This document shows positions 12,461 to 64,000 of a stretch of DNA of 64,000 nucleotides, one piece after another (within the stretch, counting starts at the first letter, position 1; each line of letters opens with the position of its first letter). A program made the translations under genes and the position numbers. The stretch is from Fimbriimonadia bacterium (GTDB lineage Bacteria > Armatimonadota > Fimbriimonadia > Fimbriimonadales > JABRVX01). A model generated the notes under the pieces. The model had not been told where the DNA came from, ran no database searches, and saw only the letters and a program-made list of their open reading frames with translations. The stretch covers positions 1 through 64,000 of the forward strand of contig JBGPGO010000017.1 of NCBI GenBank assembly GCA_041483895.1, in the 5' to 3' direction.

Positions 12461-12598
12461 GGTGTTTGCTTGGAAAATACTGGATCGTCGCGCTTCCTCC
12501 TGCATTCGGCAGACCCGTGGAGATGCCTGGCCATTGGAACGCTTCCATGTGGAAAGTGAGTTCGGGAGGGTGGCTGGGTTACGCCTTCTACGTTGACT

Positions 12599-29141: not shown

Positions 29142-30089
29142 TCAGACGTCATCAGATTTGAAATAGAGTCGAGCAACCTCGGCAACGGCTTGATCCGCAT
29201 AAAGTGCCTTCTTAGAGCTCTTTGGATTTCCAGGATCGAGTAGCCGGATGTGGCACAAGTCTGCATTCGCCTTTATCTGATTCAGGACTTGTATAAATCT
29301 CGGATCCGCTTTGAATTCCGAATGGTCATCCTTTAGCTTAGTGACGAGCGATTTGTAGTCCAGCGGAAAGACTGTCCTGATGTCCTCCTGGGAGATTTGA
29401 ACCTTTGGAGCCAGTGGATCATGAGTAAGGGCAAGCCCGGTTGTAGCTGGAGTGGAACCACTGGTTTGAATCGGATTGATTTGAGCATTCATGGGACCTA
29501 TCTGGGCAATTCGAGCGAACAAATCCGTCCATCTCCGTTCGACAGAAACTTCGATGTGACGCATCATTTCCGCAAGTTCGGGATACTTGATGCGTTCGGA
29601 CTTTGCTCGGTACCGGTAATAGATGTCTCCCTCTTTTATTTCACCCACATTCTTAGTCGCCATCACGGGCTTTCGGAGGGCCGGCGGCGCATAAATGTAG
29701 CCAAGGGTCACTCCATGGAGCAGGAACGTCCCTCGGACATAGCGCACCTCTGGTGAAAAGTACTCGTTTAGAAACCCCGTTATCGTCGCATCATCCTGCT
29801 GTTCAAAGTTGGCGGTGAGCAATCCGACGAGCTCTCTCGGCTGATTCTTGACGCCGAAAATGAGATACCCACCTGAAGAATTTGCGAAGGCCGCTAGCGT
29901 CTTGCTGTAGCTGTCCTTCGACCCCCAATTGAATGCTTGCTTAAACTCGATGCTAGACCCCTCTCGGGCCAATACTCGACGTGGGGACGAATCGTCGACC
30001 TTCAACCGGCGGACAAGAGTGGTCTCGTGGTCTTCACCGATTTCCGCTTCCTTATGCTGTGCGCTCGTGTACTTCTTCACTTGCGTCAT
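29142..30089 (-). CDS. Schlafen/AlbA_2 domain protein
   Basis: EGSSIEFK, AAFANSSGGYLIFGV and IYYRY motifs; start uncertain. Confidence 0.8.
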   Translation of the reverse strand: MTQVKKYTSAQHKEAEIGEDHETTLVRRLKVDDSSPRRVLAREGSSIEFKQAFNWGSKDSYSKTLAAFANSSGGYLIFGVKNQPRELVGLLTANFEQQDDATITGFLNEYFSPEVRYVRGTFLLHGVTLGYIYAPPALRKPVMATKNVGEIKEGDIYYRYRAKSERIKYPELAEMMRHIEVSVERRWTDLFARIAQIGPMNAQINPIQTSGSTPATTGLALTHDPLAPKVQISQEDIRTVFPLDYKSLVTKLKDDHSEFKADPRFIQVLNQIKANADLCHIRLLDPGNPKSSKKALYADQAVAEVARLYFKSDDV

Positions 30090-30434
30090 TCTTTTACCCG
30101 AAGAAGCAACACAAGTTCCCGACACATCGACAAACCCTGGCGGGGGGGGCATCTGTCCAGCGGCCAGAACAGGGCCTAGGCGAAGCTTGGAAATGGCCGA
30201 GCGAAGCTGGAAATGAGCCGTCAGTCCTGGGAATGACCGCCTAATCCCGCCTCGAGTCGATCCGGTGCGACGCTGCCATGAGGATTCTGGGTGCCTCCGA
30301 GGTATCCTATAACGGTTTCGGGGTAGGGTGAGCTCAGGTTCTTCGCAGCCTCGGCCGAATTAGGACGCCATCGTCGCGGCTGAACCGTCTTTCTAGTCGG
30401 AACGTAGGATCAGCCGTGTTTGGAAGGAAGCGTT

Positions 30435-33155: not shown

Positions 33156-33232
33156 ATGAGACGGTCGCTAGCCGAAAGAGTAACGGTTGCAAAAAGCCAT
33201 ATCGGCCTTTTCTTTCGTTTGTTCGAAACGTT

Positions 33233-33418
33233 GTGAATGGCGAGATCGAGGATGTGGCCGCTGGTTGCCGCTTCGAGCGGGAAGGCGGGCGGCACTCAAT
33301 TTGGCTCAATCCGGCAAACGGCGCGTCTGCGGCTATTCCGCGGCATACCGAGTTGAAGCGGAACACCGTACGGCAGATTTGCCAAGACCTTGGCGTGGAG
33401 AAACCGCTTGGAATGTAA
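33233..33418 (+). pseudogene. hicA: HicA toxin, N-terminally truncated; start codon supplied by the repeat
   Basis: GCRFEREGGRHSIWLNP...IPRHTEL...ICQDLG; first helix missing. Confidence 0.7.
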
Positions 33419-33419
33419 C

Positions 33420-33641
33420 CTAAAAGACCGGCGCGATGCGCTCGATCAGCGTCTTGGGGCCTTTTGCGCGAAGGGCTTGATCGCGCCGATAGGCGGTCAG
33501 CTCGTGAAGGGCATCCAGGACCATCTCCCGCGCTTCTTCGACCGTCTCGCCTTCGGAGACAGCACCGGGCACCTCCGGAATGAAAGCCGTAAAGCCGCCT
33601 TCTTCCGCAGGTTCAAACACGATGGTGATTTCGCTGTCCAT
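33420..33641 (-). CDS. hicB: HicB family antitoxin
   Basis: EEGGFTAFIPEVPGAVSEGETVEEA; TATAAT 6 nt before ATG. Confidence 0.85.
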   Translation of the reverse strand: MDSEITIVFEPAEEGGFTAFIPEVPGAVSEGETVEEAREMVLDALHELTAYRRDQALRAKGPKTLIERIAPVF

Positions 33642-33772
33642 GAGTCTATTATACGCCGAGGACTCGCAGTCGGCGACTCGAAGGTAGGATTTCTTCGTTA
33701 GTTTGCCTTTTCTTAATTCTGTTCGAAACGTCGTGAATGGCGAGATCGAGGAAGTGGCCCGCCGGTTGCGAA

Positions 33773-34111
33773 TCAGTGAAACGGACGCACCTCGACCGGC
33801 GCCCGACAGGCGACGACGGCCTTGCGTCCCCACTCCACCGCCTCGGCCAGGTCAGCGCATTCCAGCACCCAGAAACCGCCCACGTGCTCCTTGGTCTGAA
33901 GGTACGGTCCGTCGGTGATGAGCACCTCCCCATCGGGCTGCGCCCGTAGCGACTTCGCGTTGCGTGCCGGTTGCAGGCCGTCGGCGGAAATCCTGACACC
34001 GGCAGCCACCATCTCGGCGTTGAGCGCGCAGATATCGCGGACCATCGCTTCGTCCTCTGCGACAGACGGGTCGTAATCGTCTGGGTGGTGAATTGCAACC
34101 AAATACTTCAT
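33773..34111 (-). CDS. YciI/DGPF family protein
   Basis: ITDGPYLQTKEHVGGFW and EVRPF motifs. Confidence 0.85.
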   Translation of the reverse strand: MKYLVAIHHPDDYDPSVAEDEAMVRDICALNAEMVAAGVRISADGLQPARNAKSLRAQPDGEVLITDGPYLQTKEHVGGFWVLECADLAEAVEWGRKAVVACRAPVEVRPFH

Positions 34112-34174
34112 GACTTCCCCTTTAACGGTCTTCGGGCGGGCCGGTTGCCCTGCCTTCACGTTATAGTGGCACGG

Positions 34175-34504
34175 CTACGACAAATTGTCCAAGAATTCCT
34201 CCGGCCGCTCGACGAGCCCGGGGCGGACCGGATTCTCGTGGATGTAGTCCAGCTTCTGCCAGAACACCAGGATGTTCCTAAAGCCCACGATCTCGTGGAT
34301 ATCGGGAAGCCGGCCCGCCACTTCCGGAGCGCCATTCTTGAGCTGAGTGGCCGCCTCGCCGACGACGAAGAGCTTGCGCTCTACCATGGCGCGGAGGCCC
34401 TTGTCCTTCAGATAGTCTTCTTGGGTTTTGCCTTCGAGAAACTCCAGAGCGTCACGCCCGTTCGTCAGGATGTCCTCAAGCCAAAGTCCAGGGTCACGGC
34501 GCAT
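34175..34504 (-). pseudogene. HepT/DUF86 HEPN toxin truncated at its RxxxxH motif and fused to a RAYT transposase fragment
   Basis: ERKLFVVGEAA...IVGFRNILV followed by FWQKLDYIHENPVRPGLVERPEE. Confidence 0.7.
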
Positions 34505-34793
34505 AGAGGGTCACTGCGCCGGCTTCGGCGCTGCGGCGGAGCCTGGAGTTCTCGAGCAGGTCCACCTTGCGCCCAAAGAGCTTCTGCATGTCTTCGAGCA
34601 GCCCGAAGTATTGCTTTCCCAGCCTCATGCTAGCGGGAGGCGCGTCGAACTCAACCAGAAAATCGAGGTCGCTGCGTTTCGGGTCGAACTCATCGCCGGC
34701 GGCAGACCCGAACAGTCTCAAACGCCGCACCGCGTATTGGCGGCACAGCGATTCCAGCTTCTTCCGGGTCTCCAGGCTCACCTCGAACGGCAT
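34494..34793 (-). CDS. MNT minimal nucleotidyltransferase (MntA-like antitoxin)
   Basis: LFGSA...SDLDFLVEF and FGRKVDL motifs. Confidence 0.88.
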   Translation of the reverse strand: MPFEVSLETRKKLESLCRQYAVRRLRLFGSAAGDEFDPKRSDLDFLVEFDAPPASMRLGKQYFGLLEDMQKLFGRKVDLLENSRLRRSAEAGAVTLYAP

Positions 34794-37521: not shown

Positions 37522-38343
37522 CGACCATTGGAGGCTGCGGCCATCGGTGACAAACCGAATCGATCCGTCTGTATCTGTTCGCAGAATATGGATGCTTCGA
37601 TGCCGCAGCCTCTCCATCACTTCCGCGCTGGGGTGGCCGAACTGGTTCCCTCGTCCGCAACTGATCACGGCGAATGTCGGCGCTACCTTGTCCAGCCATT
37701 CTTCTGTCGATGCTGTATCGCTTCCATGATGGCCGACCTTTAGCACGTCCGCTCGGATGTCTCGTCCCGTCGCGAGGATTCTCTCTTCTGCCAACGCTCC
37801 AGCGTCCCCGGTAAACAGAAACCGTCGCTCCCCAAACCGCACTCGCACGATGACCGACGTGTCATTCATCTCTTCCACCGGATCGCTAGTCGGTGATAGC
37901 ACCTCGATCTGCGTTCCATCGGACAGATCGATCTCTTGTCCGCGATAGGCCTGTTTCAGACGCATCCCGTTGGTTCGCTCCCTGCGGCTCAGATCGCACT
38001 CGATGCCATTGAACAGCACGAGCTGGACGGGGACCGCGGCGATGAGCTGCTCCGCCCCTCCAATGTGATCGGCCTCGGGATGCGTCCAGATGAACAGATC
38101 CACACGGAGGACGCCAATTTCGCGGAGCGCCTGGAGAATGATGGCGGAGCTGCTCCGGCCTTCCTCGAATTTCGGGCCGGCGTCGATGACGATGATCGCT
38201 CCGCCCGGCGTTTTGACCACTGCCGCGTCCCCTTGCCCCACGTCGAGAAACCGGACCTGCAGCTCCGGATTGGCGGCAGGCCAAAGGAGCGCGGCGACCG
38301 AAGCGCCCCATATCCCGACCGCGCCGAGCTTAAGCCACTTCAC
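37504..38343 (-). CDS. ComEC metallo-beta-lactamase domain protein
   Basis: LDVGQGD, THPEADHIGG, FTGD and KVGHHGS motifs. Confidence 0.9.
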   Translation of the reverse strand: MKWLKLGAVGIWGASVAALLWPAANPELQVRFLDVGQGDAAVVKTPGGAIIVIDAGPKFEEGRSSSAIILQALREIGVLRVDLFIWTHPEADHIGGAEQLIAAVPVQLVLFNGIECDLSRRERTNGMRLKQAYRGQEIDLSDGTQIEVLSPTSDPVEEMNDTSVIVRVRFGERRFLFTGDAGALAEERILATGRDIRADVLKVGHHGSDTASTEEWLDKVAPTFAVISCGRGNQFGHPSAEVMERLRHRSIHILRTDTDGSIRFVTDGRSLQWSLSSSR

Positions 38344-39772
38344 GCTTCGGCTCCCGAGCCAGACCGATGAAGAGCAGGTAGTACGGCGCCAGCCAGATGG
38401 GGCTGAACAGCGGGACCAACACGCTGGACCAAGAGAGTCCGCCGATGGTAGAGCTCACGGCGGCAATCCAATTCGCGCAAGGAGCCGCAATTCCCGCGAG
38501 CCAAAGCGGCTGCCATCCCGGCACGAACGCCAACATAGGCCCGATAAGACCCGCGATGAGACAGGGCGCAACGAATGGCGCGCAGAGCAGATCGCCAATC
38601 ACAGACAGTGTCGGCACGCGACCGAAGTGGTAGGCGATGAGGGGGCCGCTGGCCAACGTCGCGACGAAGGTGGTTGCGGCCGCCGTGGCGACCCAACGCA
38701 GGACCTGTCCGGAAAGACGGTCGTGCGACGATGGGATTCTTTGTCCCAGCCAACGATTGATGGCGGGCATCCAGAGGATGAGGCCCCCGGCGGCAAAATA
38801 CGAGAGTTGAAAGCCCGCATCCATCACTGCGGACGGATCGGTCAATACCTGATAGATTCCGCCTGCGCCGAGGGCGGTCAGTGCGTCGGAGGGCCTCCGG
38901 ACGATGGGCGCCGCGACGTATATGATCATCGCTACCGTCGCGCGCATGACCGCGGGGGCCGCGCCCGCAGCCAACGCATAGGCGATAAGAATAAGTATGC
39001 AGGCGAAAACCGATGCAAATCGTGGCAGAGGCAACAGAGAGAATATCCAGTTCACCAGGATTCCAAGAATGGCCACGTTCAGACCGGATGCCGCAAGAAG
39101 ATGATAGACGCCCGTCCGTTTCATGTTGTCGCGAATCGCCATCGGGACCGATCCTGGGTCGCCGAAAACGATGGCGGTCGTCATCTTGGCGGCCTGCGGA
39201 TCCATGGAGCGGCGATAGGCCGTCTCCATCTGCGAACGAACTCGATAGACAAGGGCGCGGGACGGAGTGTCGGAAGGCGCTCTGAGGTGGACGCTAAATG
39301 CCGTTACGTTTGCGTAAACTTGAAGCCGGCGGCCGTACGCGGGCTCAACCGGATTGACTCTCCCACGAATCTCAATCCGATCGCCGGGTCCAAAACTGCT
39401 GCCCCTCGGCAATGTGACCATGATGTCCGCTTCCACCGGCTCACTGTTTTGGGTTTCGAGATGAACCTTCCACCGGTTGGCGCCGACAGGCCAATCCAAC
39501 CGGCCTTCCAAAACCGACGCTTCGTTCACGGTATCGAATCGCACCGGTGAGTCCAGTGTGAATGCCTGTTGTTGGCCACTGGCAAGTCCCCCCGCGCCCG
39601 CCGCCAGCGCGCATAGCGTCATCGGCCACCACGCGCGCCATAGGCCCGCAACGGCAGCCAGTCCGGCCAAGAGGAAAAGGGAGATGTTCCCGCACAGAAT
39701 GAATGCCGCCGACCCGGCGACGAGGGCGAGGGAGACCTGAAGGAGCGGGCGCGGCCTGATCGTCTCAAACAT
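38330..39772 (-). CDS. comEC: ComEC/Rec2 membrane competence domain
   Basis: TGVYHLLAASGLNV, PAVMRA and GFQLSY motifs; many TM helices. Confidence 0.88.
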   Translation of the reverse strand: MFETIRPRPLLQVSLALVAGSAAFILCGNISLFLLAGLAAVAGLWRAWWPMTLCALAAGAGGLASGQQQAFTLDSPVRFDTVNEASVLEGRLDWPVGANRWKVHLETQNSEPVEADIMVTLPRGSSFGPGDRIEIRGRVNPVEPAYGRRLQVYANVTAFSVHLRAPSDTPSRALVYRVRSQMETAYRRSMDPQAAKMTTAIVFGDPGSVPMAIRDNMKRTGVYHLLAASGLNVAILGILVNWIFSLLPLPRFASVFACILILIAYALAAGAAPAVMRATVAMIIYVAAPIVRRPSDALTALGAGGIYQVLTDPSAVMDAGFQLSYFAAGGLILWMPAINRWLGQRIPSSHDRLSGQVLRWVATAAATTFVATLASGPLIAYHFGRVPTLSVIGDLLCAPFVAPCLIAGLIGPMLAFVPGWQPLWLAGIAAPCANWIAAVSSTIGGLSWSSVLVPLFSPIWLAPYYLLFIGLAREPKREVA

Positions 39773-53243: not shown

Positions 53244-53280
53244 TTGACTAAAATAGACAACATAGGTAGAATATCGTCTA
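53244..53280 (+). promoter_or_regulatory. Sigma70 promoter with overlapping inverted repeat
   Basis: TTGACT-17-TAGAAT; TAGACAACAT...ATATCGTCTA straddles the -10 box. Confidence 0.7.
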
Positions 53281-53309
53281 CTAATCAGGCACATAGGGCG
53301 GAGGCGGCG

Positions 53310-53552
53310 ATGACATTCAGTTGCAGCGCGTGCGGGGCCGAGCATCTGGCGGCGGGAGAGCACTGCGAACCGTGCGACCGGTTTATTGGGGCGCTCGAAG
53401 GGCTGCTCGACCAATATGAGGACCCGCTGCCGGCGCTCAAACAGTTCTGCCAGGACGAATTCGATTGGGTGGTTTTCGACGGCGAAGAGGAGTACGAACA
53501 GGACTGCGTGGACCGCATGCGCGATCTGCGGGATGAGGGAATCGGCTTATGA
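53310..53552 (+). CDS. Small Zn-finger-like acidic protein
   Basis: CSAC...CEPC; GGAGG RBS; first gene after the promoter. Confidence 0.65.
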   Translation: MTFSCSACGAEHLAAGEHCEPCDRFIGALEGLLDQYEDPLPALKQFCQDEFDWVVFDGEEEYEQDCVDRMRDLRDEGIGL

Positions 53553-53884
53553 GGCAGGCTGCGAAGCAGGGGGTGGATGGCGCCAAGACCAAGGCGGCTG
53601 GTCGGCGTCGTGTCGCGGCCAAGGCGGAGGAAACGCAGGCGCTCTCTTTGGAATCTGCATTCCTCCGAGTGTCTGAGCGGCGAGGAACGACCCCGAGTGA
53701 GCTGTTCACGAGCGTGATTGACTCGGGGCTCGTCGCCCAGGCGGAAAACGGGCATGGCTGGGCGGTGAAGATGCTCCTGGATGGCCTGTGCGGCGACGGG
53801 GTCAGCGCGGATCCCGACCCACCACTCAGCCCGGCCGCGGGACTGCGGATCTACGAGATTGTGCGGGAAGAGAAAGGGGAATGA
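53549..53884 (+). CDS. Probable terminase small subunit
   Basis: Position before TerL, ATGA coupling at both ends, AQAENGHGWAVKMLLD. Confidence 0.5.
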   Translation: MRQAAKQGVDGAKTKAAGRRRVAAKAEETQALSLESAFLRVSERRGTTPSELFTSVIDSGLVAQAENGHGWAVKMLLDGLCGDGVSADPDPPLSPAAGLRIYEIVREEKGE

Positions 53885-55350
53885 TAGGCCCCCACCCTAG
53901 CCCTCCCCCGCAAGCGGGGGAGGGGATTTCTTGTGACGGCCTCTCGTCGAGAGGTGGGTCGCGCAAGAAGGCTTTGGCATCCATGACAACGGTGGAAGCG
54001 ACACGATTGTCGGCTGCCAGCTCTCTTGCGGCCTACGCCGAAATCGTTCACGGCCTCTCGGCTGCGCCGCATCATCGCGAGTGGATCGAGGCGCTGGAAG
54101 ATCCGGATCGCAAACGGATTTTGATCACCGCGCCGCCGGGGCATGGTAAATCAACCTGGGTGGCCGTCATCTATCCGGCCTGGCGTCTCGCGAGGAATCC
54201 GGCGGAGCACATCGTGCTGACGTCCGTCACGGATAACCAGGCCGAGGACCGGGCGAGCGCCGTCGGCTCCGTTGTGCTGTCAAAAGAGTATCGCCGTCTA
54301 TTTCCTCATGTGCGGCAAGGCAAGAGATGGACGCGCGGGGATTGGGAGCTCGCGAGATCGCAGGTGGACGACAAAGACGCCACGATGTTCGCCTGCGGCG
54401 TGGGGAGCTCTTCGCTGATTGGCAGACGGGCGGATTGCATACTTATTGATGATCCGATGTCGGAAGAGACCGCGCGCAGCGCGATTGGCCGCGAGGCGCT
54501 TGCGACATGGTTTCGCCGCACGCTGCTGACCCGCGCCGCGGGCGACGCGAAGATCGTCTGCATCATGACCCGATGGCATCAGGACGACTTGGCGCCGGTT
54601 CTGATCGAGGCCGGATTCGAACATATCCGAATGCCGGCGGAAGATTACTGGTCGCCGGGCGGGGCTCTATGGCCAGAACTGTACCCACCCGAATTTCTGC
54701 TCGAAAGAAAACGGGACATGGGGACTGCGCTATACAACTGCATGTATCTTGGCGACCCGTCGGGATTGGAAGGCAGGCTGTTCCGTCGAGAATGGTTTGA
54801 GATCGTGCGGGCCGCGCCGGCGATCACGCACGTTGTGAGCGGATGGGACCTCGCGGCCAGCACGCGAAACGAGTCGGATTATTCGGTGAAGACGACTCTC
54901 GGTCTCGGGATCGATGGGAGCGCCTATGTGCTCGGCGTTTGGCGAGAGCGGAGGGAGTTTCCTGTCATCCGCCGAGAGATTGCGTCACAGGGGGTTTTGG
55001 ACTCCGTTGCCGCGGTCGGCATCGAAACCAACGCGTTTCAGTTGGCGGCGGTGCAGATGCTCAAAGAGGACCAACTGCCGTTTCCGATACTGCCAATCTC
55101 CGCCGACAAAGACAAGGTGAGTCGCGCTTTGGAATGGATTGCCGCTGCGGAGGCGGGACGGATCAAACTGGTCTCCGGCGGATGGAATGACGCCTGGCTT
55201 TCGGAAATAACCGGCTTTCCCGATTCGCCGCACGATGATCAGGTGGACAGTTTCGGCGTGGCATGGCGGGTTGCGAATCGATTCCGTGGAAGTCGGCGGG
55301 GACTGTTGGCGGGCGAAGAGCGGCTTGCGTCCGCATCGATGGATTGGTAA
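53881..55350 (+). CDS. terL: Terminase large subunit (family B repeat in N-terminus)
   Basis: APPGHGKST, GRRAD.ILIDDP, MTRWHQDDL, WDLA and HDDQVD motifs. Confidence 0.92.
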   Translation: MIGPHPSPPPQAGEGISCDGLSSRGGSRKKALASMTTVEATRLSAASSLAAYAEIVHGLSAAPHHREWIEALEDPDRKRILITAPPGHGKSTWVAVIYPAWRLARNPAEHIVLTSVTDNQAEDRASAVGSVVLSKEYRRLFPHVRQGKRWTRGDWELARSQVDDKDATMFACGVGSSSLIGRRADCILIDDPMSEETARSAIGREALATWFRRTLLTRAAGDAKIVCIMTRWHQDDLAPVLIEAGFEHIRMPAEDYWSPGGALWPELYPPEFLLERKRDMGTALYNCMYLGDPSGLEGRLFRREWFEIVRAAPAITHVVSGWDLAASTRNESDYSVKTTLGLGIDGSAYVLGVWRERREFPVIRREIASQGVLDSVAAVGIETNAFQLAAVQMLKEDQLPFPILPISADKDKVSRALEWIAAAEAGRIKLVSGGWNDAWLSEITGFPDSPHDDQVDSFGVAWRVANRFRGSRRGLLAGEERLASASMDW

Positions 55351-55359
55351 GGGGGAATT

Positions 55360-56565
55360 ATGGCTGGGAATGGTGGGTTGTTCAAAGAGCGGGCGCCGTC
55401 GTTTTCGAGCGGAGTCTTGGCATCCGCCCGGTATCCGATCGGCAGCGGTGGGGAGCCGATTGTCGGCTATGATGAACTGCGCCGGCGATGGTCGGTGTTG
55501 CGCAAAATCGAACGGGATCCGGTGGTTTCCGCCGCGCTGGCGTTTAAGAAATGGCTGCCGGTAGGGGACGGTTGGCGGGTCTATTCGGCGGACGACAGTC
55601 CGGAGGCCGTCAAACAGGCGGAATTCGTCCGGTGGTGCTTCGCGCAGATGGAGGGGACGGTCGAGGAGCTGATCTCGAATGTGCTCGATGCCGTTGCGGT
55701 GGGCTTTAGCGTTGTGGAAAAGGTGTACCGGATCGTCGACCGGGGAGAATACGCGGGTTTTCTCGCGCCGGTCCGGTTCGTTCCGAAAGACCCTTCCACA
55801 ATCGGATTCGAGCTGGGCGCCAGCGGGCAAGTGGAAGCGATCACATTTACGGTTCCGGGTAGAGCGAATGCCGAGCCTCTGCCGCCCGAAAAGTTCATTC
55901 ATTTTGTGTACGAAGGAAAATATCGAAGTCCGTACGGATGCGGCGATCTGGTGAAAGCCTACCGCTCGTGGTGGTCGAAGGACAATGCGCTACGCTGGTG
56001 GGCGATGTTCGTCGAAAAGTATGGCGTTGTTCCCCGAATCGGAAAATATGAAGACGGCGCAAGCCAGGAGTTTCAGCAAGAGCTGCTGGACCAACTGAAG
56101 GTCTCCGCGGCGAACACGGAATTTGTCGTGCCCAAGTCAGTCGAGCTGGAGCTTTTGCAGCCGGACGGAGATGGCCAGGCATTCGAGCGTTTTGTAACAT
56201 ATCACGACAAAGAGCTTGCCAAAGCGATTCTGGGAAACACGCTTCTCGTGGATGAGGGACAGCGGGTTGGCAGCATGGCGCTCGGGAAAGTGCACTTGGA
56301 GGTGCTCCGGGCGCAATTGCGAAAACTGAAGCGCATATTGGAAGACCGGGTTATGGGCGAACAGATCATTCGCCAGATTATCGATATCAATTACACCGCA
56401 ACCGACCGATATCCCAGATTCGTGCTGCCGGATGCCCGCAAAGAGGAGCTGACGGAGCTGGCGAAAGCCATCGCGCTGATGGTAGACAAAGGAATAGTAG
56501 AACCGACCGAACCCTGGGTGCGGGAATGTCTCGGATTTCCCAAGCAGGAGGAGTATGCATCCTAA
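55360..56565 (+). CDS. Portal protein, Mu gp29/DUF935-like
   Basis: W.MFVEKYG.P.RIGKY, DKELAKAILGNTL and GSMALGKVH motifs. Confidence 0.88.
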   Translation: MAGNGGLFKERAPSFSSGVLASARYPIGSGGEPIVGYDELRRRWSVLRKIERDPVVSAALAFKKWLPVGDGWRVYSADDSPEAVKQAEFVRWCFAQMEGTVEELISNVLDAVAVGFSVVEKVYRIVDRGEYAGFLAPVRFVPKDPSTIGFELGASGQVEAITFTVPGRANAEPLPPEKFIHFVYEGKYRSPYGCGDLVKAYRSWWSKDNALRWWAMFVEKYGVVPRIGKYEDGASQEFQQELLDQLKVSAANTEFVVPKSVELELLQPDGDGQAFERFVTYHDKELAKAILGNTLLVDEGQRVGSMALGKVHLEVLRAQLRKLKRILEDRVMGEQIIRQIIDINYTATDRYPRFVLPDARKEELTELAKAIALMVDKGIVEPTEPWVRECLGFPKQEEYAS

Positions 56566-56785
56566 CATGACACGTCTGCAGAACGCCATCGAAATGATTC
56601 GTTTCGGCAAAATCACGGAGATACACATCGCCGACGGAATACCGCTGCGATTCAGAGTTGAACAGATGATTGATCTGAGCCGTGACGAATCGGTTGCCGC
56701 GCTGGATCAAGACGGTATCGTGCCCAAGAGAAAAGCCGGTCCGCAATTGGACCGGCTGACTCGTAAAGCAAGATTAGCAGGTTAA
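56555..56785 (+). CDS. Small protein resembling DUF2292 (YezD/OscA)
   Basis: AIEMIRFGKITEIHIADGIP; GGAGG RBS. Confidence 0.5.
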   Translation: MHPNMTRLQNAIEMIRFGKITEIHIADGIPLRFRVEQMIDLSRDESVAALDQDGIVPKRKAGPQLDRLTRKARLAG

Positions 56786-57264
56786 TTCTTGCAAAGGATC
56801 TTGATGTTGCCACTGGCCACATACCCGACACGCAGATGATAGAGCGTACCGTGTGCGACATCGCCGACAACCAATGCAATCAGATCGATGCTAAAAATGT
56901 TGTCGGTGATAACGGCTGCCATCTGAGCAGGCTTGCCATTGTAGATCACCTCGGCGACGAATGCGGCGGCGGCAAAGTTCCACGCCTGGGCGCAAACGAA
57001 CTTGCCGAACCGAGTGACCCGCACGTCTATGCGGACAGGGCTAAGTGTCGCCGCGCGCATTTTACCAGCGACCGGCCAGAATTCCACATAGTGGAAACGG
57101 CCAAAGCCAATGCCATTATTTACGCCGGCAACCCAAAAATCGGCAGCCGCCTGTTTGCCGTCGGAAGTCCAGATGCCTGGCGACCCATAGGCAATCATGC
57201 TATCGGCAAACGCAGCGCCAACTGCCGAAACGGCTACAACGGCAGCGATCAAAGTTCTTTTCAT
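56782..57264 (-). CDS. Secreted hypothetical protein inserted antisense in the cluster
   Basis: AAGGAG RBS, signal MKRTLIAAVVAVSAVGAAFA. Confidence 0.7.
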   Translation of the reverse strand: MKRTLIAAVVAVSAVGAAFADSMIAYGSPGIWTSDGKQAAADFWVAGVNNGIGFGRFHYVEFWPVAGKMRAATLSPVRIDVRVTRFGKFVCAQAWNFAAAAFVAEVIYNGKPAQMAAVITDNIFSIDLIALVVGDVAHGTLYHLRVGYVASGNIKILCKN

Positions 57265-57522
57265 TATGATTCTCTCCTTCATGAATGAGATGGCCAAATG
57301 GCCACGAGCGGTTCGCGCAATCAACGCGTAATCCTAATAGTAACACAGTAGTACTTCTCGGTCAAGTTTTGCCAGGTGAGTTTTGTACATAATGGTAGTA
57401 GTACTTGTGGTAGTAGTACTGATAGTTGTTTTGACAGGAAGATCATGATCTGGCTTGCTTTACCAGATTTTCGGTGACTGTCCTTGGAGCGGGTCGGGAC
57501 CAAAGTCCTAAAGTTTCATTCT

Positions 57523-57545
57523 ACTAGACGCACGTCTGGTATACT
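57523..57545 (+). promoter_or_regulatory. Extended -10 promoter with palindrome, upstream of the head genes
   Basis: ACTAGACG-CA-CGTCTGGT overlapping TGG-TATACT. Confidence 0.55.
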
Positions 57546-57637
57546 GTTGTCAATAGGAACGCGGGATGGCTTCGGTTCGGCGGTAGACGTGTAGCGAAGC
57601 GGAAGAAGCGATTGGCAAAAGGCTGGCCCGACAAACG

Positions 57638-57683
57638 GGAGGTCTTCGGCGAGATTGGGCGCCGAGGGCCTCCTTATTTTTTT
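57638..57683 (+). terminator. Intrinsic terminator in the leader of the head operon
   Basis: 14-bp stem GGAGGTCTTCGGCG/CGCCGAGGGCCTCC plus TTATTTTTTT, ending 14 nt before ATG 57698. Confidence 0.8.
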
Positions 57684-57697
57684 GAAGGCGGGGTGGA

Positions 57698-58660
57698 ATG
57701 CGAGAAGTGATTAAACACGCAAAGCTGTTTGAGGCGGGAGTCTATGAGGACAAAGGGCTCGAAATGACGGAAGAGGACATTGACGAATTGATCGAGGCAT
57801 CGGGCCCAGTGCCGCTTACGATCGGGCATTTGGATCCGGAAACGGAGAACCCGCTGCGACTCGGTGTTGTGAGCGGCCTGTATCGGAAAGGCAAAGAGCT
57901 GTTTGGCGTGATCCGATTTGTGCCGGAAGCATGGGCGCTTGCGGTCAAGTCCGGCGCCCGTTGGCTGTCGATCTGCCTCGACATGCTGCGAAAGCGGCTA
58001 GTGGAGGTTTCGCTCGTTACGAATCCACGAGTCAGCGACGCGAAGGTGAAATTCGACTCGTCGGAACCGATCGAATTCACCGTTCCCTTTGACACGACGC
58101 TCGATGATCGCGCGTCCGTGGTGCGTCAATCGATTTACGATGCGTATGGTCCCGACGTGTGGGTTTCGGAAGTGTACGATGACAGTGCGATTGTTGAACG
58201 GGGCGGCGAGCTTTGGAAAGTTCCTTATCAGTTGAATGCGGACAATGTGGCTGTTCTTTCGAATCCGATACCTGTAGAACGCCAGTATGTCCCGACGAAA
58301 TTCAACGCCCAGGTCGTAGAGGCTTTGGGCCGGGAACGCGAGGCCTTTCGGCGAGTGCGACGCGATCGGATGGAAGAAACAATACTGCAGTGGAAGCGTG
58401 ACGGCAAGCTGCTGCCCGCCGGCGAGAAGACGGCGCGAAGGATCTTGTTCGGTCCCGCGGATGGCGCGGAGCTGTTTCAAAAGTTCCTAGATGATCAACC
58501 GGCGGGTCTTCTGTTGCGAGAGGTCGTTCCGTTTCATGGGGAGTCGCTCGACGGCCTCCCCGAACTGGATGCCTCGGAGGCCTCGTTCTGTGACCGATCG
58601 GGGATTCCTCTGGACGAGTACCGGCGCATGAAGGCGGGACCGCCAAAGAGAAGGCGCTGA
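57698..58660 (+). CDS. Mu gpI-like prohead protease/scaffold
   Basis: PLTIGH...LG.V..L...G.ELF, VSLVTNPRV; position in the cluster. Confidence 0.75.
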   Translation: MREVIKHAKLFEAGVYEDKGLEMTEEDIDELIEASGPVPLTIGHLDPETENPLRLGVVSGLYRKGKELFGVIRFVPEAWALAVKSGARWLSICLDMLRKRLVEVSLVTNPRVSDAKVKFDSSEPIEFTVPFDTTLDDRASVVRQSIYDAYGPDVWVSEVYDDSAIVERGGELWKVPYQLNADNVAVLSNPIPVERQYVPTKFNAQVVEALGREREAFRRVRRDRMEETILQWKRDGKLLPAGEKTARRILFGPADGAELFQKFLDDQPAGLLLREVVPFHGESLDGLPELDASEASFCDRSGIPLDEYRRMKAGPPKRRR

Positions 58661-58726
58661 AATCACGCGTCTTCGGCTCTGACGAATGAGAAGTCAACTT
58701 GAAGGTAGTTTCAGGAGGTGTGATCG

Positions 58727-59161
58727 TTGGCTGCATTGACAGCAGATTTGAATCATCCCATAAAGGATGGCGTGATCGTGAGCCAAAAGATGGCTGCGGT
58801 CAAGATTTACAAAGGCGCAATGGTGGGTATGGCGGATGAAACCACCGCAGGCGTACCTGACACAGGATACGTGACAAACCTGGCGACCGGCACAACCAAC
58901 GCGATGATATTTGTTGGTGTGGCGGAAGAGATGGTGGACAACTCCGGCGGCTCCGCCGGCGCGAAATCGATCAAAGTACGTCGGACCGGGAGATTCGTCT
59001 TTCCGAAAACCTCCGCGGTACAGGCGGACGTGAGTCGGGAGTTCTACGCGTCCTCGAATCAGGACCTAACAACAACGGCAACCAAGAATGCGAAGGTTGG
59101 CAAATGCACGGCATTGATCGACAGCAGCCACCTCGAAATCGCCATCAGCAACTACGCCTAA
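58727..59161 (+). CDS. Head decoration/cement protein (DUF2190-like)
   Basis: MAALTAD, KIYKGAMV, FVGVAEE.VDNSGG and VRRTGRF; GGAGG RBS. Confidence 0.7.
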   Translation: MAALTADLNHPIKDGVIVSQKMAAVKIYKGAMVGMADETTAGVPDTGYVTNLATGTTNAMIFVGVAEEMVDNSGGSAGAKSIKVRRTGRFVFPKTSAVQADVSREFYASSNQDLTTTATKNAKVGKCTALIDSSHLEIAISNYA

Positions 59162-59179
59162 GGAAAGGGGGACAGATTA

Positions 59180-60145
59180 ATGCCTGTTGCAAATTCAGAC
59201 GTCACTGACTTCATCGGTCCGGTCCTTCGGAACGATTTTTATGAAGCGTACTATCAAGCGCTCGACGGAGCGGATCAGCGCGGAGTTGACCTGCTCTCTT
59301 CGACCATCGCGGTGTCCGGAAATACGGCAAAGTTTCCCTTTGCCGGCGATATTCCGCAGATGAGCCGATGGTCGGACGAGCGCGCCTACGACGCCTTCAG
59401 CACGTACAGCTATTCCGTGACTCTCGGGGATCCGTGGGAGGAGACCGTTGCCATAAAGCGGACGGCGCTGCGCGATGATTTGACCGGCCAGCTCCGCCAG
59501 CGAGCGCGGGATCTCGGCGCGGTGGCGATCTCGAATCGCCTCAAGCAGATCATCAGTTCGCTGGAGACCGGAATTTCAAACAAGTGCTACGACAGCCAAA
59601 ACTTCTTTGCGACCAGCCATCCGGCAAGGTCTACGGACGGAACAAGCACCACCTATGGCAACTCCGGAACGTCCGCCCTGGATGCGGCGAGTTTGCAGGA
59701 TACGGTGCAAACGATGCGGCTATTCACGTCGGATCAGGGCCATCCGTTGGGCATCACGCCATCACACCTTTTGGTCGGTCCCAACCTGGAATGGCGGGCA
59801 CGGCAACTCCTCGAATCGCCCGTCGTGATTGTCAACGTGGGGGACTCAGCGGTCGGTTCCGGCGCAACGGCGGCGACGCCCTATAAGAACGTTCTCGTCA
59901 GCACCCTGGAGCTGATCGTCAGTCCTTGGATCGGCAACTTCCATTGGTACGTGATGGACCTGATGAAGCCCATCAAGCCCGTGGTGTTGGTTACCGAGAT
60001 GGGCGAGCTTATCGAGTTCCAGTACCTGGAAGAAGGCAGCGAGCATTCGTTCAAGCGGGACGAGTTCGTGTTCGGCGTACGCGATCGTTTCGAGATAGGG
60101 TACGGCCTGTGGCAGGTCGCGTACTATCAGGGAGGCACGGCCTAG
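59180..60145 (+). CDS. Mu gpT-like major capsid protein
   Basis: IPQMSRW, WEETVAI.R..L.DD, CYDSQNFF.TSHP, PSHLLVGP and GYGLWQ motifs. Confidence 0.9.
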   Translation: MPVANSDVTDFIGPVLRNDFYEAYYQALDGADQRGVDLLSSTIAVSGNTAKFPFAGDIPQMSRWSDERAYDAFSTYSYSVTLGDPWEETVAIKRTALRDDLTGQLRQRARDLGAVAISNRLKQIISSLETGISNKCYDSQNFFATSHPARSTDGTSTTYGNSGTSALDAASLQDTVQTMRLFTSDQGHPLGITPSHLLVGPNLEWRARQLLESPVVIVNVGDSAVGSGATAATPYKNVLVSTLELIVSPWIGNFHWYVMDLMKPIKPVVLVTEMGELIEFQYLEEGSEHSFKRDEFVFGVRDRFEIGYGLWQVAYYQGGTA

Positions 60146-60146
60146 C

Positions 60147-60404
60147 ATGGATTGGCTGCAACTGGCTGGTCTTTTGAGTCTTGGAGGGGTGGTCGGCGCA
60201 ATCGTTGCGCTGGCCTCCGCCGGGGCCCGTCTGAAGACCGATTGGGAGACACTGCGCGATTCGCTGGTCCCGTATTTGACACAGCGAAACGCCGCCGGCG
60301 ATATCGATGCGGAGTTCCTTCTTTCCGCCATCGGTCCGGTGGATGCGGATATGAAGGCGTCGGCACAAGCATTGCGATCTGTGCAACAGAGAATCCGGCG
60401 GTGA
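60147..60404 (+). CDS. Small membrane-anchored hypothetical protein
   Basis: N-terminal TM helix; GTGA coupling to the next gene. Confidence 0.6.
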   Translation: MDWLQLAGLLSLGGVVGAIVALASAGARLKTDWETLRDSLVPYLTQRNAAGDIDAEFLLSAIGPVDADMKASAQALRSVQQRIRR

Positions 60405-60859
60405 GCATTTCGATCCCCGTCGCGGAGATGAAAAGCGCTATCGAAGGATTCATCGCGCTGGCTTGGACCGACGTGACAAGTCCCATCAAATACGAGCGAC
60501 AGGCGGACAGGATTCTTTTGGACAAGGCGGTGACGCCGAACGCGGCGGTCGTCTGGAGAGATCCGGAATCCCAACCGCCGTGGTCGCCGGAGATCGGCAC
60601 CTACCTGTTCCCAATCGACGTGTACTACCTGGTTCAGTCGGAGACCCCTGGGCAGTTGGAGTCGACGGTGCAGGGCAAGGCCCGGGATTTTTTGAACCAA
60701 GCAATTGCGGCGAGGAATCGGTGGGCCGGCGTACCGGAAATGCACAGCTGGAGATTGGTAGGCAGTGAAACAGAACACAAGCGCGCGGACGCCTGGCGTG
60801 CATCCGGATGGGCAAGCGCCCGGATCGCGCTGGAGGTCCAACTCGACTATGAAAAGTGA
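60401..60859 (+). CDS. Probable tail terminator/completion protein
   Basis: Size and position; coupled GTG start. Confidence 0.5.
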   Translation: MSISIPVAEMKSAIEGFIALAWTDVTSPIKYERQADRILLDKAVTPNAAVVWRDPESQPPWSPEIGTYLFPIDVYYLVQSETPGQLESTVQGKARDFLNQAIAARNRWAGVPEMHSWRLVGSETEHKRADAWRASGWASARIALEVQLDYEK

Positions 60860-61088
60860 TGGCCGTGAAGGGGTCACCCTGTCCTGGCTGCAGTTCGGTA
60901 TCGGCGTAATGGGTCTGTTCGTTACGATGTTCAGTGGTTGGCATTCGATCGTAACGCAGTTGGAAATCAACACCGCGGTGCAGCAGCAGGATCTGTCGGA
61001 AGTAAAGACCGCTGTGAAGGAACAATAGTCTGTGTTGACCGATTTGCGCGATCGAGTCGTGCGGATGGAAGAGAGGTCCAAGCGATGA
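60849..61088 (+). pseudogene. Small TM/coiled-coil (holin-like) gene with internal TAG at 61026-61028
   Basis: Frame continues SVLTDLRDRVVRMEERSKR to a TGA overlapping the next ATG. Confidence 0.65.
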
Positions 61089-61498
61089 GCTACTTTGCCG
61101 ATGCGGATTTGACGGAGCGGATTCGTGGGACGAACGTGACGCCGACCTCCGGGGAGATTAGCGCGGCGCGGGCGTTTGCGGAGGGGTATGTGGATGCGGC
61201 GCTGACACCGAAATACAAGTGCCCCTTCAACCCTGTGCCGGACCTTGTCAAGTTCATCGCGCTGGACATAGCGGCTTACGACGTTCTGTGCAAGCATTTT
61301 TCGATCGAGGACCCGAACGTCGGGGATCTGATCCAACAGTTTTGGTCCCGGGCCCACGAGACGATCGCGCGGCTGCAGGCTGGCACTTTCAACTTGCATG
61401 ACAACGCGATCGTTGACGAGGCCGCGGAAAAACAGATCATGGCTTCTAAGACGACCGACCAGATTGTGGTAACCGACGAGGCGCTCACGGACTGGTAA
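61085..61498 (+). CDS. Head-tail connector, Mu gp36/DUF1320-like
   Basis: MSY...A.GYVDAAL..KY..PF.PVP.LV...ALDIAAY. Confidence 0.8.
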   Translation: MSYFADADLTERIRGTNVTPTSGEISAARAFAEGYVDAALTPKYKCPFNPVPDLVKFIALDIAAYDVLCKHFSIEDPNVGDLIQQFWSRAHETIARLQAGTFNLHDNAIVDEAAEKQIMASKTTDQIVVTDEALTDW

Positions 61499-61510
61499 GG
61501 GGAGGAATGG

Positions 61511-61930
61511 ATGGCGCAACGACTGATCGCGGAAGACGCGACGATAACGATTACGCCGGGTGGTCCGGATGATGGGAGCTTTACCGCCGGCACGCCGGTT
61601 ACGCTGAAGTTCCGGCAGGCCCGGTTTATCTTTGACAACGAACTGGTGGATGTGACGGCGGCCGGGGATCAATACCTGTTCCACCGGATTGCGCACAAGG
61701 ATTTCACTGTTGTGTGCGAGGGATTGGTGCATACGACGAACACCAACTATCCGGACATGACCTACCTTGCTTTCGGCAACGACCTCGCGCGGCTGACATG
61801 CACGCTGATCGGGTCCGGCAAAGTGGTTACGATAGACGGGATGGTTCAGAAGCTGTAGCTCAATGTTGATGAGCCGAACACGGAGAGCATCACGCTGAAG
61901 CCATACGGCATCGCGCCGTCGCTGGCGTAA
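61511..61930 (+). pseudogene. Probable tail tube protein with internal TAG at 61856-61858
   Basis: VDVTAAGD tube-like motif; frame continues LNVDEPNTESITLKPYG to a TAA overlapping the next ATG. Confidence 0.65.
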
Positions 61931-62247
61931 TGGCAATTGAGGTCCAACGGATCGATGATCTGAGAACATTGATCCAGGTAGCCGCCAATCAGCGCGAGGC
62001 GCGTTCTTTGGCGGTGCACTTCAGTGGACTGTACGGCTTCGAAGTAACGCCGGAAGATGTGAAAGTGGCATCTGTGATCGCGGGGTGCTCCGGGAAATCG
62101 CTTGAGGAGATCGTGCAGCTATCTCGGACGGAGGGCCCGTTGTTGGTGGAGACGCTGCGCAAGTGCAATGAACTGAACGGGTGGGAGAGTGGCGGAGGCC
62201 CTTTTGGGAGTGCCGGTGGTGGGACCGGCTCCTCCGCGCCTCGCTAG
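61930..62247 (+). CDS. Tail assembly chaperone; predicted -1 frameshift product ends at 62336
   Basis: Position after the tube gene; in-frame slippery C CCT TTT at 62199-62205. Confidence 0.65.
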   Translation: MAIEVQRIDDLRTLIQVAANQREARSLAVHFSGLYGFEVTPEDVKVASVIAGCSGKSLEEIVQLSRTEGPLLVETLRKCNELNGWESGGGPFGSAGGGTGSSAPR

Positions 62248-62325
62248 CCGGGTTGGGACGCCACCCGTTCGAACTGGCCCACCCCGGCTCGGCGTTGCCC
62301 CGGTGGGCGTTGGAGGAGGTGATGG

Positions 62326-62748
62326 ATGGTCATTGATTTTGGTCCGCTATTGGAACCTGCGGCGACCTACTTTGGCGAGATCGATCGGTTGGTATCGGCT
62401 GTGAGTCCTGTTGAAGAAATGCCGAACCCCGAAGAGCCGCTCGCAGATGGCAACTTCGGCACAGCGCAGCGGAATTGAGAACATATCTCGACCCCGGTAA
62501 ATCCAAAGGGCGACTTCCTCCGGACGGATGCAGCGCCGGGAAGAAAACGTGGGAAATCGGAAGCGGCCCCGCATGTTGCTCGCGCTTCCGGCGCCGGTCC
62601 CTCATCGGAGCAGGTTGACCTCCAGCGCCGGACAAACGAACTGCTGGAGCGGATGATTACGGCGATTACCGCAAACGGATCACCGTCGCGAAGCCGGGCC
62701 CATTGGATCGGACCGTCGATCTCCGAGCAACTGGCAACGGACCTATAA
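62326..62748 (+). pseudogene. Very short ORF at the tape-measure position with internal TGA at 62476-62478
   Basis: GGAGGAGG RBS, MVIDFGPLL...; frame resumes after TGA and stops 6 nt before the next ATG. Confidence 0.5.
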
Positions 62749-62754
62749 CTACAG

Positions 62755-64000
62755 ATGTCACTGCAACTCAACCTAAACATAAACGGATACGATCTGATTG
62801 AGGCCGGATGGGGAAAGACCCTATCCGCGCAGCAGTTCGTCGTCGATGGGCCGCTGGACAAAGACCTATGGCGGGAGCCGCTGACGGGCGCGCTGATGCT
62901 GCGGCCGGCGCCGTTCTCGGCGGAGTGGCGGGAGAGTCTTTCGTTCGAAGCGAGCAAGCTGGACGCGACCGATTTCCATCTCCAATCCCCCTATTGGGAG
63001 ACGATCCTGACCAAAGGCGGCGACAGCGATCCGTTTCTCTCCACCGTTTATGCCGCGGGCAGCACGACATCCGGAATCGAATACAGCACCGGGATAGACA
63101 TCGCAGGCCTGAAGACCAGCTACGGCGATAGTCTCGTCTGGGCGCTGCAGTCGAAGACGAATTCGGAGCTCAACCAGGGCCTCTACGCTGAGGTCCGGAA
63201 CTTTGGATACAACTTCGAGAAGGTCTCCAACTACCTGGCGATCATGTTTGGCCAATACGCGATTCGACTTCAAACCGACGGCATCGCCATTCTATATAAG
63301 TATAAGCCTGCCGCAAATAGTTGGACATTTCTCAAAGAAATGCGGTTTGCGGGTCAATCGGAACAGCACGGGACAAGCCTGTCGCTGCTCATCCTTCCCG
63401 TTCTTGGAAACCGGCTGCATTTCTATTTTTCGACCGGCCGCGCCGTCAACGCCGCCTATGACAATCAGCGGTCGCCCGGGCCGCGCGACAGTTACTATTC
63501 GTACCGGATGCCGATTGAGGAAGAGACCTGGGACAACAGCGCTAAAGTGTGGCGGGTCGTCGACCAATCCCCCATCCGAGTGGCCGTAGCGCCGGGCCGG
63601 CGGTACCTGATGCAGATGGGCCGCGTCGTCTTTCCGACCGACGCCAAGTCCGCGACGCTTGGGCACGATGACCTCGGCCTGCCGCGATCGAATGACCCTT
63701 CGGCGACTCTCTACGGATACGCGCCGGGAAATTCAAGCGTGGACAGCACGATTCTGGACAAGACGACCGGTGTGGAATTCCTGTCCGGAACGGATACCAA
63801 GCCGCAGCCAAGGGTAACGCTCCAGGCAGCGTCCAACGGCATCTGGAGCCCGGAGGTGCACGGAGTCGCCCTTGATTTTCCGGAGCTTATCTTTGCCATC
63901 AGCCGTAGCCAGATGAACGCTTCCGTGGACGTATTGCGGGTCCGCTTGCGGCTTCATAATGAGCTGGAACCTCAGGAGATGGAGGTCTATCTGCGAGATC
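62755..64000 (+). CDS. Large putative tail/baseplate protein, partial (not in the ORF track)
   Basis: MSLQLNLNINGYDLIEAGWGK... stays open for 415 codons to the window end. Confidence 0.75.
   Translation, partial: MSLQLNLNINGYDLIEAGWGKTLSAQQFVVDGPLDKDLWREPLTGALMLRPAPFSAEWRESLSFEASKLDATDFHLQSPYWETILTKGGDSDPFLSTVYAAGSTTSGIEYSTGIDIAGLKTSYGDSLVWALQSKTNSELNQGLYAEVRNFGYNFEKVSNYLAIMFGQYAIRLQTDGIAILYKYKPAANSWTFLKEMRFAGQSEQHGTSLSLLILPVLGNRLHFYFSTGRAVNAAYDNQRSPGPRDSYYSYRMPIEEETWDNSAKVWRVVDQSPIRVAVAPGRRYLMQMGRVVFPTDAKSATLGHDDLGLPRSNDPSATLYGYAPGNSSVDSTILDKTTGVEFLSGTDTKPQPRVTLQAASNGIWSPEVHGVALDFPELIFAISRSQMNASVDVLRVRLRLHNELEPQEMEVYLRD

Follow-up and report, generated by a model that had tools for sequence, protein, structure and literature searches.

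What is a compact run of phage-like structural genes doing among the housekeeping genes of a Fimbriimonadia bacterium? The run begins at position 53244 of the 64,000-nucleotide stretch analyzed here (the window; C17:1-64000 of genome G000, which is 3.95 Mb in size and 95% complete). It could be a prophage, mobile or decaying, or a set of phage genes that the host has made its own. The initial annotation had proposed an independently derived, Mu-like gene transfer agent (GTA). Domestication by the host is supported by each check that we ran and is, in our judgment, very probable, whereas a GTA-like function, proposed from gene content, is a reading toward which we only lean. To our knowledge, few GTAs have been described, nearly all of them alphaproteobacterial. 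As the annotation had surmised, a literature search that did not cover subscription journals or the supplements of GTA and provirus surveys found no description of one in Armatimonadota.

The whole cluster in G000 is a single 16.7 kb block flanked by host genes, with MurJ and others on its 5′ side. Its right end lies at contig position 69907, followed by a 145-residue membrane open reading frame (ORF) and then by cyclase, epimerase, PilZ, and haem A/O synthesis genes. One operon runs from its promoter through a zinc-finger ORF, a small terminase subunit (TerS) named by position, the large subunit (TerL), and a Mu-type portal. A second leads from a promoter region (~57520-57555) and a leader terminator through the protease, cement, gpT capsid, small membrane ORFs, a tail terminator-like ORF, the gp36 adaptor, tube, chaperone with its slippery site, tape-measure-slot ORF, and hub (Table 1). 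Beyond the window follow, in contig order, a 75-residue ORF, a broken ~970-residue tail gene, and ORFs of 397 and 103 residues, the last ending at 69907. The gene order first noted stands, but a minus-strand 180-residue ORF and a second promoter part the portal from the protease and make two operons of the cluster.

Table 1. Features of the cluster (positions are those of the window unless the contig is named; residues abbreviated aa)
Feature	Position	Strand	Remark
Sigma70-type promoter TTGACT-17-TAGAAT of the terminase/portal operon	53244..53272	+	G002 has TTGACT-17-TAGACT at the equivalent place
Palindrome GTAGAATATCGTCTAC across the -10 element, candidate SOS (LexA) box	53266..53281	.	Top score in the genome; perfect copies in G001 and G002
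80-aa CxxC-x9-CxxC ORF, possibly a regulator	53310..53552	+	Conserved in f1; no Pfam family
111-aa ORF, TerS by position	53549..53884	+	42-50% identical to G001/G002; no family match
Genome-wide hairpin repeat between TerS and the conserved TerL start	53888..53930	.	Repeat count and f1 comparison
Terminase large subunit, phrog_38 type	53984..55350	+	Frame open from 53881; 70-71% identical to G001/G002
Mu-type portal	55360..56565	+	PF06074 (Portal_Mu), E 7e-70; 36/41 genomes of the order
180-aa ORF, unrelated, between the operons	56782..57324	-	Not found beside the relatives' modules
Second promoter region with weaker box copies	57524..57554	+	Box scores 9.0-9.2, under the cut-off of 10
Terminator-like hairpin and T-run in the head-operon leader	57637..57674	+	Kept in 3/3 f1 genomes
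Prohead protease/scaffold, Mu gpI-like	57698..58660	+	phrog_976, E 8e-5 (weak); orthologs 5′ of the capsid gene phylum-wide
Capsid cement/decoration protein	58727..59161	+	phrog_1731, E 2e-20
Major capsid protein, Mu gpT family	59180..60145	+	PF10124, E 1.5e-48; solved gpT-family capsids match the profile
85-aa membrane-anchored ORF	60147..60404	+	Homologs 3′ of the capsid gene in several families
152-aa ORF, tail terminator-like by position only	60401..60859	+	43% identical to G001/G002; no family match
Small membrane/coiled-coil ORF with in-frame stop	60849..61088	+	Intact in G001/G002
Head-tail adaptor, Mu gp36 family	61085..61498	+	PF07030, E 7e-11
Tail tube protein (likely)	61511..61858	+	67-70% identical to G001/G002
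Tail assembly chaperone pair, -1 slippery site at 62199	61930..62336	+	Conserved in f1
Tape-measure-slot ORF with in-frame stop	62326..62748	+	Intact, ~123 aa, in G001/G002; label positional
747-aa baseplate hub protein	62755..64000, ends at contig 64998	+	Predicted fold, Foldseek

Relatives are cited below by handle (G...) and families by code, f1 being the family of the window genome and G001 and G002 its other members. Neither C17 nor the cluster contigs of G001 and G002 gave a match to profiles for tyrosine integrases, serine recombinases, or Mu transposases; as a positive control, the transposase profile detected a true Mu-like prophage in G020. No 12-mer is common to both cluster ends, no tRNA lies in the right-hand 17.8 kb, and the downstream side, out of sight of the initial annotation, runs into host genes at ~69.9 kb and shows neither an integrase nor a replication module. 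Integrase, transposase, and att site, noted as missing from the visible part, were likewise not seen in the rest of the cluster. The G020 prophage (C1, 668-688 kb; L251) has a transposase, a B protein, and a 1094-residue tape measure, in a genome that also carries the single-copy module.

The search of related genomes reveals a clade-wide, nearly always single-copy module. When related loci were scanned for with the capsid alignment, 68 of the top 80 were labelled as Armatimonadota groups, the closest, labelled Fimbriimonadales, at 69% identity. All five families of that order have the capsid (35/41 genomes) and the portal (36/41), and where the capsid matches twice, the extra match comes from a split gene (G012, G023, G029) or from the G020 prophage. 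Across 41 genomes the f1-type TerL is found in the three f1 genomes, beside weaker unrelated matches, and a second TerL family matches 33; with two non-orthologous or fragmentary matches set aside (G028, another element; G021, a 37-residue piece), 34 genomes have a TerL of either family. Phylum-wide, the capsid profile matches 113 of 301 genomes, family by family: it is found in f18 (14/15), f25 (20/21), f22 (9/10), f9 (6/6), f32 (20/26), f16 (8/16), and f2 (19/39), and rare or missing in f8 (0/16), f27 (0/10), and f30 (1/18). G036, an unpublished genome, counts as one entry among the others here, and nothing is claimed from it alone in either the tallies or the trees.

A fixed syntenic cluster, in contrast, is not what these genomes contain. 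Flanking genes are common within genera and different between them, and the operons are dispersed: TerL, portal, and capsid lie at 2.27, 1.23, and 1.41 Mb in G020, portal and capsid at 0.10 and 1.88 Mb in G006 and at 1.67 and 2.69 Mb in G034, while G001 has the two operons in reverse order with host genes between. In relatives, loci up to ~1.8 Mb apart could not be packaged together, but the 16.7 kb block of G000 has no such separation. Outside the order, the usual layout at 20 loci is TerS, TerL, portal, protease, cement, capsid, adaptor, and a 100-residue head-closure-like protein, often followed by holin-like and endolysin genes and then host genes, with no tail seen; lysis genes close the module in several families. 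Judged by gene content, the element spans nearly the whole phylum and in most members looks tail-less.

Variants occur at several loci. G134 (L269, L270, L303, L304) and other f32 genomes have one to four module copies each; one f32 copy lies near serine recombinases and a methyltransferase, no TerL was seen next to it, and it may be mobile even now. A head-only form in G061 (L268, f11) has a TerL nearer the window's type, a GH25 lysozyme, and, at the portal position, a divergent gene. In f18 (L067, L074, L080, L256, L258), small ORFs and a ~355-residue beta-rich ORF, which could be a head fibre or adhesin, stand between the capsid and adaptor genes. A record titled as a methanogenic archaeon (L093) has a capsid gene at 34% identity and is probably a mislabelled bin.

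The module has been inherited with its hosts, as the tree comparison and substitution analysis proposed at the outset bear out. Supported splits shared with the tree of RecA, the single host marker, number 11/13 for capsid, 14/18 for portal, 12/13 for TerL, 13/18 for protease, and 9/11 for cement, against two to three at most when labels are permuted; strongly supported conflicts number one each for portal and protease and none for capsid, TerL, and cement (FastTree, splits with support of at least 0.9; partial sequences, G031, and G028 left out). When 57 genomes from across the phylum are compared, the RecA tree shares 24 of the 29 capsid splits that have support, and no conflict reaches 0.95 in both trees. 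In congeneric pairs, synonymous divergence (dS) tracks that of recA (0.09 vs 0.05-0.11; 0.16 vs 0.10-0.18; 0.59 vs 0.48-0.82), and the ratio of nonsynonymous to synonymous substitution (dN/dS, our own Nei-Gojobori script) in head genes of ten such pairs is mostly 0.04-0.15, with extremes of 0.004 and 0.41, the latter from a pair with dS <0.05; several distant pairs are saturated. Active phages are likewise under purifying selection, but host-like dS, single copy, and dispersal set the module apart from them.

These results bear on the proposal that the element is a defective prophage without host function, decaying in place. Lesions in the G000 copy, sporadic loss, and the long branch and different TerL of f1 speak for it, but it fits poorly with single-copy retention in many families, separate operons, host-like dS, low dN/dS, and RecA-congruent trees, or with tail and lysis genes that in G001 and G002 are intact and under selection (dN/dS 0.07-0.21). 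We therefore hold it to be very improbable for the module, although it may describe the recent fate of the G000 copy.

Among the head and packaging genes, TerL matches phrog_38 (E 8e-95) and retains what we take to be its Walker A, Walker B, and nuclease motifs, and the terminase, portal, protease, cement, capsid, and adaptor genes are all intact in G000. Family profiles bore out the annotated TerL, portal, decoration, capsid, and connector genes and, weakly, the protease, and found no match to Mu gpF among the cluster proteins, again as reported; the zinc-finger-like gene after the promoter is likewise present, while TerS has its position in its favor but no family match. The host repeat placed within TerL is real, with 64 copies of at least 28 nt on 24 contigs of the genome, but it lies upstream of ATG 53984, the start matching that of the relatives' TerL, and so outside the conserved enzyme. 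Copies of this REP-like hairpin also occur at 1618, 23654, 36095, and contig position 65296, with high depth from other organisms in sediment runs. The nearest phage capsids are at most 33% identical (eight IMG/VR loci at ≤33%; GenBank phages at ≤31% among the matches listed; seven proteins in the protein search).

The f1 head itself is divergent. Its TerL family differs from the one used elsewhere in the order, and in free trees f1 falls on a long branch outside the order's clade. Approximately unbiased (AU) tests of f1 at the host position (p 0.36, 0.62, and 0.18, the last two for capsid and portal) are compatible with descent alongside the host and are no proof of it; an independent origin of the f1 head, suggested by FastTree, was unsupported by these tests. 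The simplest reading is an orthologous, accelerated head with TerL replaced and the tail kept or newly gained.

How might such a module be controlled? The near-consensus sigma70 promoter noted initially is there (10/12 positions), but consensus alone is weak, since 5 kb hold four promoter-like sites against 2.3 expected. A palindrome, GTAGAC-N4-GTCTAC, emerged when the G000 and G002 promoters were compared. With at most two mismatches, it occurs no farther than 320 nt from recA in 34 of 41 genomes versus 17 of 1500 random windows; with a matrix built from the recA upstream sites, the cluster promoter ranks first of 32 sites in G000, where others precede recA, a weak IMS_C (Y-family polymerase-like) gene, mraZ, and an Mrr gene. 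All three f1 genomes have the box at the TerL operon, and the second promoter of G001 and G002 (TTGACA-17-TATAAT) holds it within the spacer. We consider the palindrome a likely candidate for the SOS box of Fimbriimonadales, with LexA its predicted binder; LexA also affects RcGTA. In the literature, supplements and subscription journals not covered, no description of an Armatimonadota SOS box was found. The copy upstream of mraZ (L315, G000:C1 ~399 kb) suggests a link between the damage response and the division cluster, and weaker copies precede recA in f11 and f18 and are not evident in the other families tested.

Damage control of the f1 cluster is likely by the same evidence, and it would be lineage-specific because the box, present at every f1 TerL operon, is rare at other operons and in other families. 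At the protease operon it is weak in f1, present in G311, G246, G090, and G262, and not found in f4 and f5. The leader had no Rfam riboswitch match at E 1, and its folding z is -1.9.

The tail, by comparison, belongs to f1. The annotated tube, chaperone, and large tail gene are all present. The tube resembles viral clusters of the ESM Atlas (0.97; 18-28% Phage_tail_2); the chaperone gene has a CCCTTTT site, presumably of the G/GT type, and an open -1 frame in all three f1 genomes. The large gene encodes a predicted baseplate hub (AlphaFold pLDDT 92), about half of which matches Mu gp44/T4 gp27-type hubs (Foldseek, E 6e-15) and the whole of which matches two uncultured-phage proteins at a TM score of 0.77. 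Of the Mu-like head-tail cluster originally described, only the head is Mu-like because no sheath gene is seen in the cluster, and the tail type is confined to f1. The ~140-codon ORF at the tape-measure position fared worse, as an in-frame TGA at 62476-62478 leaves 50 codons; the slot proteins are only about half identical among f1, and homology to the relatives is marginal, with 24 of 500 shuffles scoring equally well. The hub family has 188 representatives in a large sequence library, and f1-type tail genes turn up in prophages scattered patchily through the order; for the second large tail gene, 6/41 genomes gave a match, two of them weak. PF10145 and PF06199 searches matched nothing, but they missed the known G020 tape measure and the window's tube and are uninformative.

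Two elements of G028, both with the hub, bear on tail length. One is a fuller prophage that also has a primase and, at the tape-measure position, a 563-residue gene. The second, a structure-only element (C2, ~579-598 kb) has an HK97-type head, the f1-like short-tail layout, a strong box, a helix-turn-helix (HTH)-S24 repressor gene, and a 96-residue gene at that position, with no integrase near. It sits in genus g7, which is without the Mu-type capsid; tail genes were seen in one of three g7 genomes. The miniature tape measure looks derived because G028 has both gene lengths at this position.

Taken together, we propose a host-owned, vertically inherited packaging module that DNA damage would release from repression and that would then load host DNA into capsids in a GTA-like manner. 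LexA or another damage-responsive repressor would bind the box, the leader terminator may add a second layer of control, the terminase would package chromosome pieces with no preferred site, particles would leave by lysis, and the delivered DNA might be used for recombination or repair. In f1 the head would be joined to a very short, non-contractile tail made of the tube, chaperone, ~123-residue tape-measure-slot protein, and hub, with an amidase in addition.

Several observations speak against this proposal. Box scores of at least 10 precede lexA in 8/30 cases (11/1500 random windows), the protease operon in 4/34 genomes, all f2, and the other TerL family in 0/32, and many top-scoring G000 sites precede genes without an evident repair role. 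The module has been lost in places (capsid in 0/7 of genus g7 and 19/39 of family f2), copies in G012, G023, and G027 look broken, and some f32 copies are multiple and near serine recombinases. The hub family appears in only 6/41 genomes of the order even with a 100-sequence profile (profiles gave 4, 5, and 6), and most members are therefore without a visible injection device. Compared with G001 and G002, the G000 copy has in-frame stops at 61026 (small membrane ORF) and 62476 (tape-measure-slot ORF) and, within its second large tail gene, a frameshift at contig ~67.5 kb and a stop at ~67.9 kb; the 59-residue holin-like and Amidase_2 genes are absent from its assembly.

The stop at ~67.9 kb is covered without difference by contigs in two of four sequencing runs, possible source samples; cover of the other lesions in contigs of the four runs is not shown among the pieces listed. 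Contig depth in these runs, a weak measure, is similar over cluster and flank except in repeat bins. No RNA run is listed among those holding the sequence. The head genes, ~6 kb in length, contain none of the four lesions, which are too few to separate tail- and lysis-specific decay from decay of the whole cluster. By its sequence, the G000 copy is partly pseudogenised, and because its tail genes are broken and it has no holin-like or amidase gene, it probably makes complete particles no longer.

Two other routes for a domesticated head were weighed. Heads made after damage could serve PBSX-like killing, decoying or jamming of invading-phage assembly, or protected DNA release. The evidence for domestication applies equally here, most members have no visible tail, and PBSX of Bacillus subtilis, mitomycin-inducible, packs evenly dispersed 13.4 kb host fragments yet injects none (as given in an excerpt of PMC12946183). 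Killing, however, needs the tail that most members lack, and selection on the terminase, portal, adaptor, and head-closure-like protein fits DNA-filled, tail-ready heads; such uses strike us as unlikely, though the foremost of the alternatives. Alternatively, the host may practice tail piracy in the style of the phage-inducible chromosomal islands that form capsids (cf-PICIs), with tail-less, DNA-filled heads taking the tails of passing phages and f1 having fixed a short tail of its own. The phylum-wide set of TerS, TerL, portal, protease, capsid, adaptor, and closure genes with no tail matches the cf-PICI packaging module (according to the part of bioRxiv 10.1101/2025.02.11.637232 available), f1-type tail genes do occur in patchy prophages of the order, and some f32 copies lie near recombinases. 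Against it stand the missing integrase and replication module and, since cf-PICIs are by definition without them, the lysis genes of several families; an unrelated kind of tail could also be encoded elsewhere in these genomes, two family searches having failed their own controls. We give piracy a smaller chance still. A composite history, held tentatively and thought rather unlikely, is that an ancestor of much of Armatimonadota independently domesticated a Mu-type head as a GTA, that most descendants retain a DNA-filled head without a tail, adaptor and closure proteins included, and borrow phage tails, and that f1 fixed an SOS-controlled miniature tail, which G000 is losing again.

Returning to the packaging module that we favor, its nearest analogs are instructive. 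Like RcGTA and CcGTA, it comprises a structure-only cluster of ~15 kb with extra loci elsewhere, vertical inheritance, a short tail, and host control, and the f1 leader hairpin echoes the early-cluster terminator of CcGTA that needs anti-termination (PMC11150451, in excerpt). Unlike them, it is built of unrelated parts—a Mu-type portal, a gpT capsid, and other TerL families—in another phylum, has a recA-type box directly on the structural promoter, mostly lacks a visible tail, and is known from genes alone. Its portal, capsid, and Armatimonadota host place it outside Rhodogtaviriformidae, an assignment made with no tree including RcGTA sequences. FpGTA of Faecalibacterium, a near-ubiquitous GTA-like operon outside Proteobacteria with particles lacking identifiable tails (same excerpt of PMC12946183), differs in its podovirus-type tail proteins and observed particles, whereas our module, recognized from genes, has a neck of the long-tailed-phage type. 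PBSX, a resident element packing random host DNA as proposed here, is a tailocin; the module has no sheath, usually no tail, and a range far beyond one species group. Like the module, the cf-PICIs have a tail-less set of head, packaging, adaptor, and connector genes, which suits most relatives and not f1, but they are mobile, pack their own DNA, and carry integrase and replication genes and no lysis genes, whereas the module is fixed, dispersed, host-congruent, without those mobility genes, and in several families equipped for lysis. Phage Mu and Mu-like prophages have the same portal, protease, gpT capsid, and gp36 adaptor families and a gp44 whose fold the hub resembles; the module is without transposase A and B, gpF, sheath, and long tape measure, all of which the G020 prophage has, and the capsid of that prophage is only 27% identical.

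Six features have been used to define GTAs (PMC9662315), of which three are found here: tailed-phage-derived proteins, at the level of genes; full endogenisation at several loci (no mobility genes on the contigs, two to three loci in many genomes, f32 possibly excepted); and vertical inheritance with co-diversification, the f1 TerL having been replaced. The other three, packaging of mostly random host DNA, inability to package all of its own genes, and delivery of DNA to other cells (doubtful for the broken G000 copy), are properties of particles, and for this reason the label should be GTA-like and not GTA. The independently derived Mu-like GTA of the initial annotation accordingly survives as a domestication, with its function inferred.

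Elsewhere in the genome, the ComEC gene (38333-39772, minus strand) and two T2SSE ATPase genes (PilB/PilT-like, at 12593 and 15223) are present as noted, but competence genes were dropped as GTA support because they are too common, DprA occurring in 5/5 genomes examined and in 11/14 unrelated controls. An AlbA_2 gene, an Eco57I/N6-methylase gene, and a nucleotidyltransferase-HepT pair at 29145-34793 form a candidate defence or toxin-antitoxin patch. A second, unrelated TerL (30% identical), beside a methyltransferase-like ORF on a 3.7 kb contig (C39:2191-3663), is a candidate prophage fragment or binning stray.

That sequence does not readily separate GTAs from dead prophages has been stated as a difficulty (PMC12946183), and a 7.1 kb "portal; head; capsid" incomplete prophage was recorded in a Fimbriimonadales bin, with no interpretation in the portion of PMC8597652 available. 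Our analysis cautions that "incomplete prophage" calls in such genomes may be host genes. A candidate SOS box for Fimbriimonadales is a further result. The analysis points to an independent and apparently very old domestication over many families of one phylum, in forms tailed and tail-less, with and without a damage box, and this variety would allow direct tests of whether DNA repair is what keeps GTAs in place and whether a head on its own can be the unit of selection.

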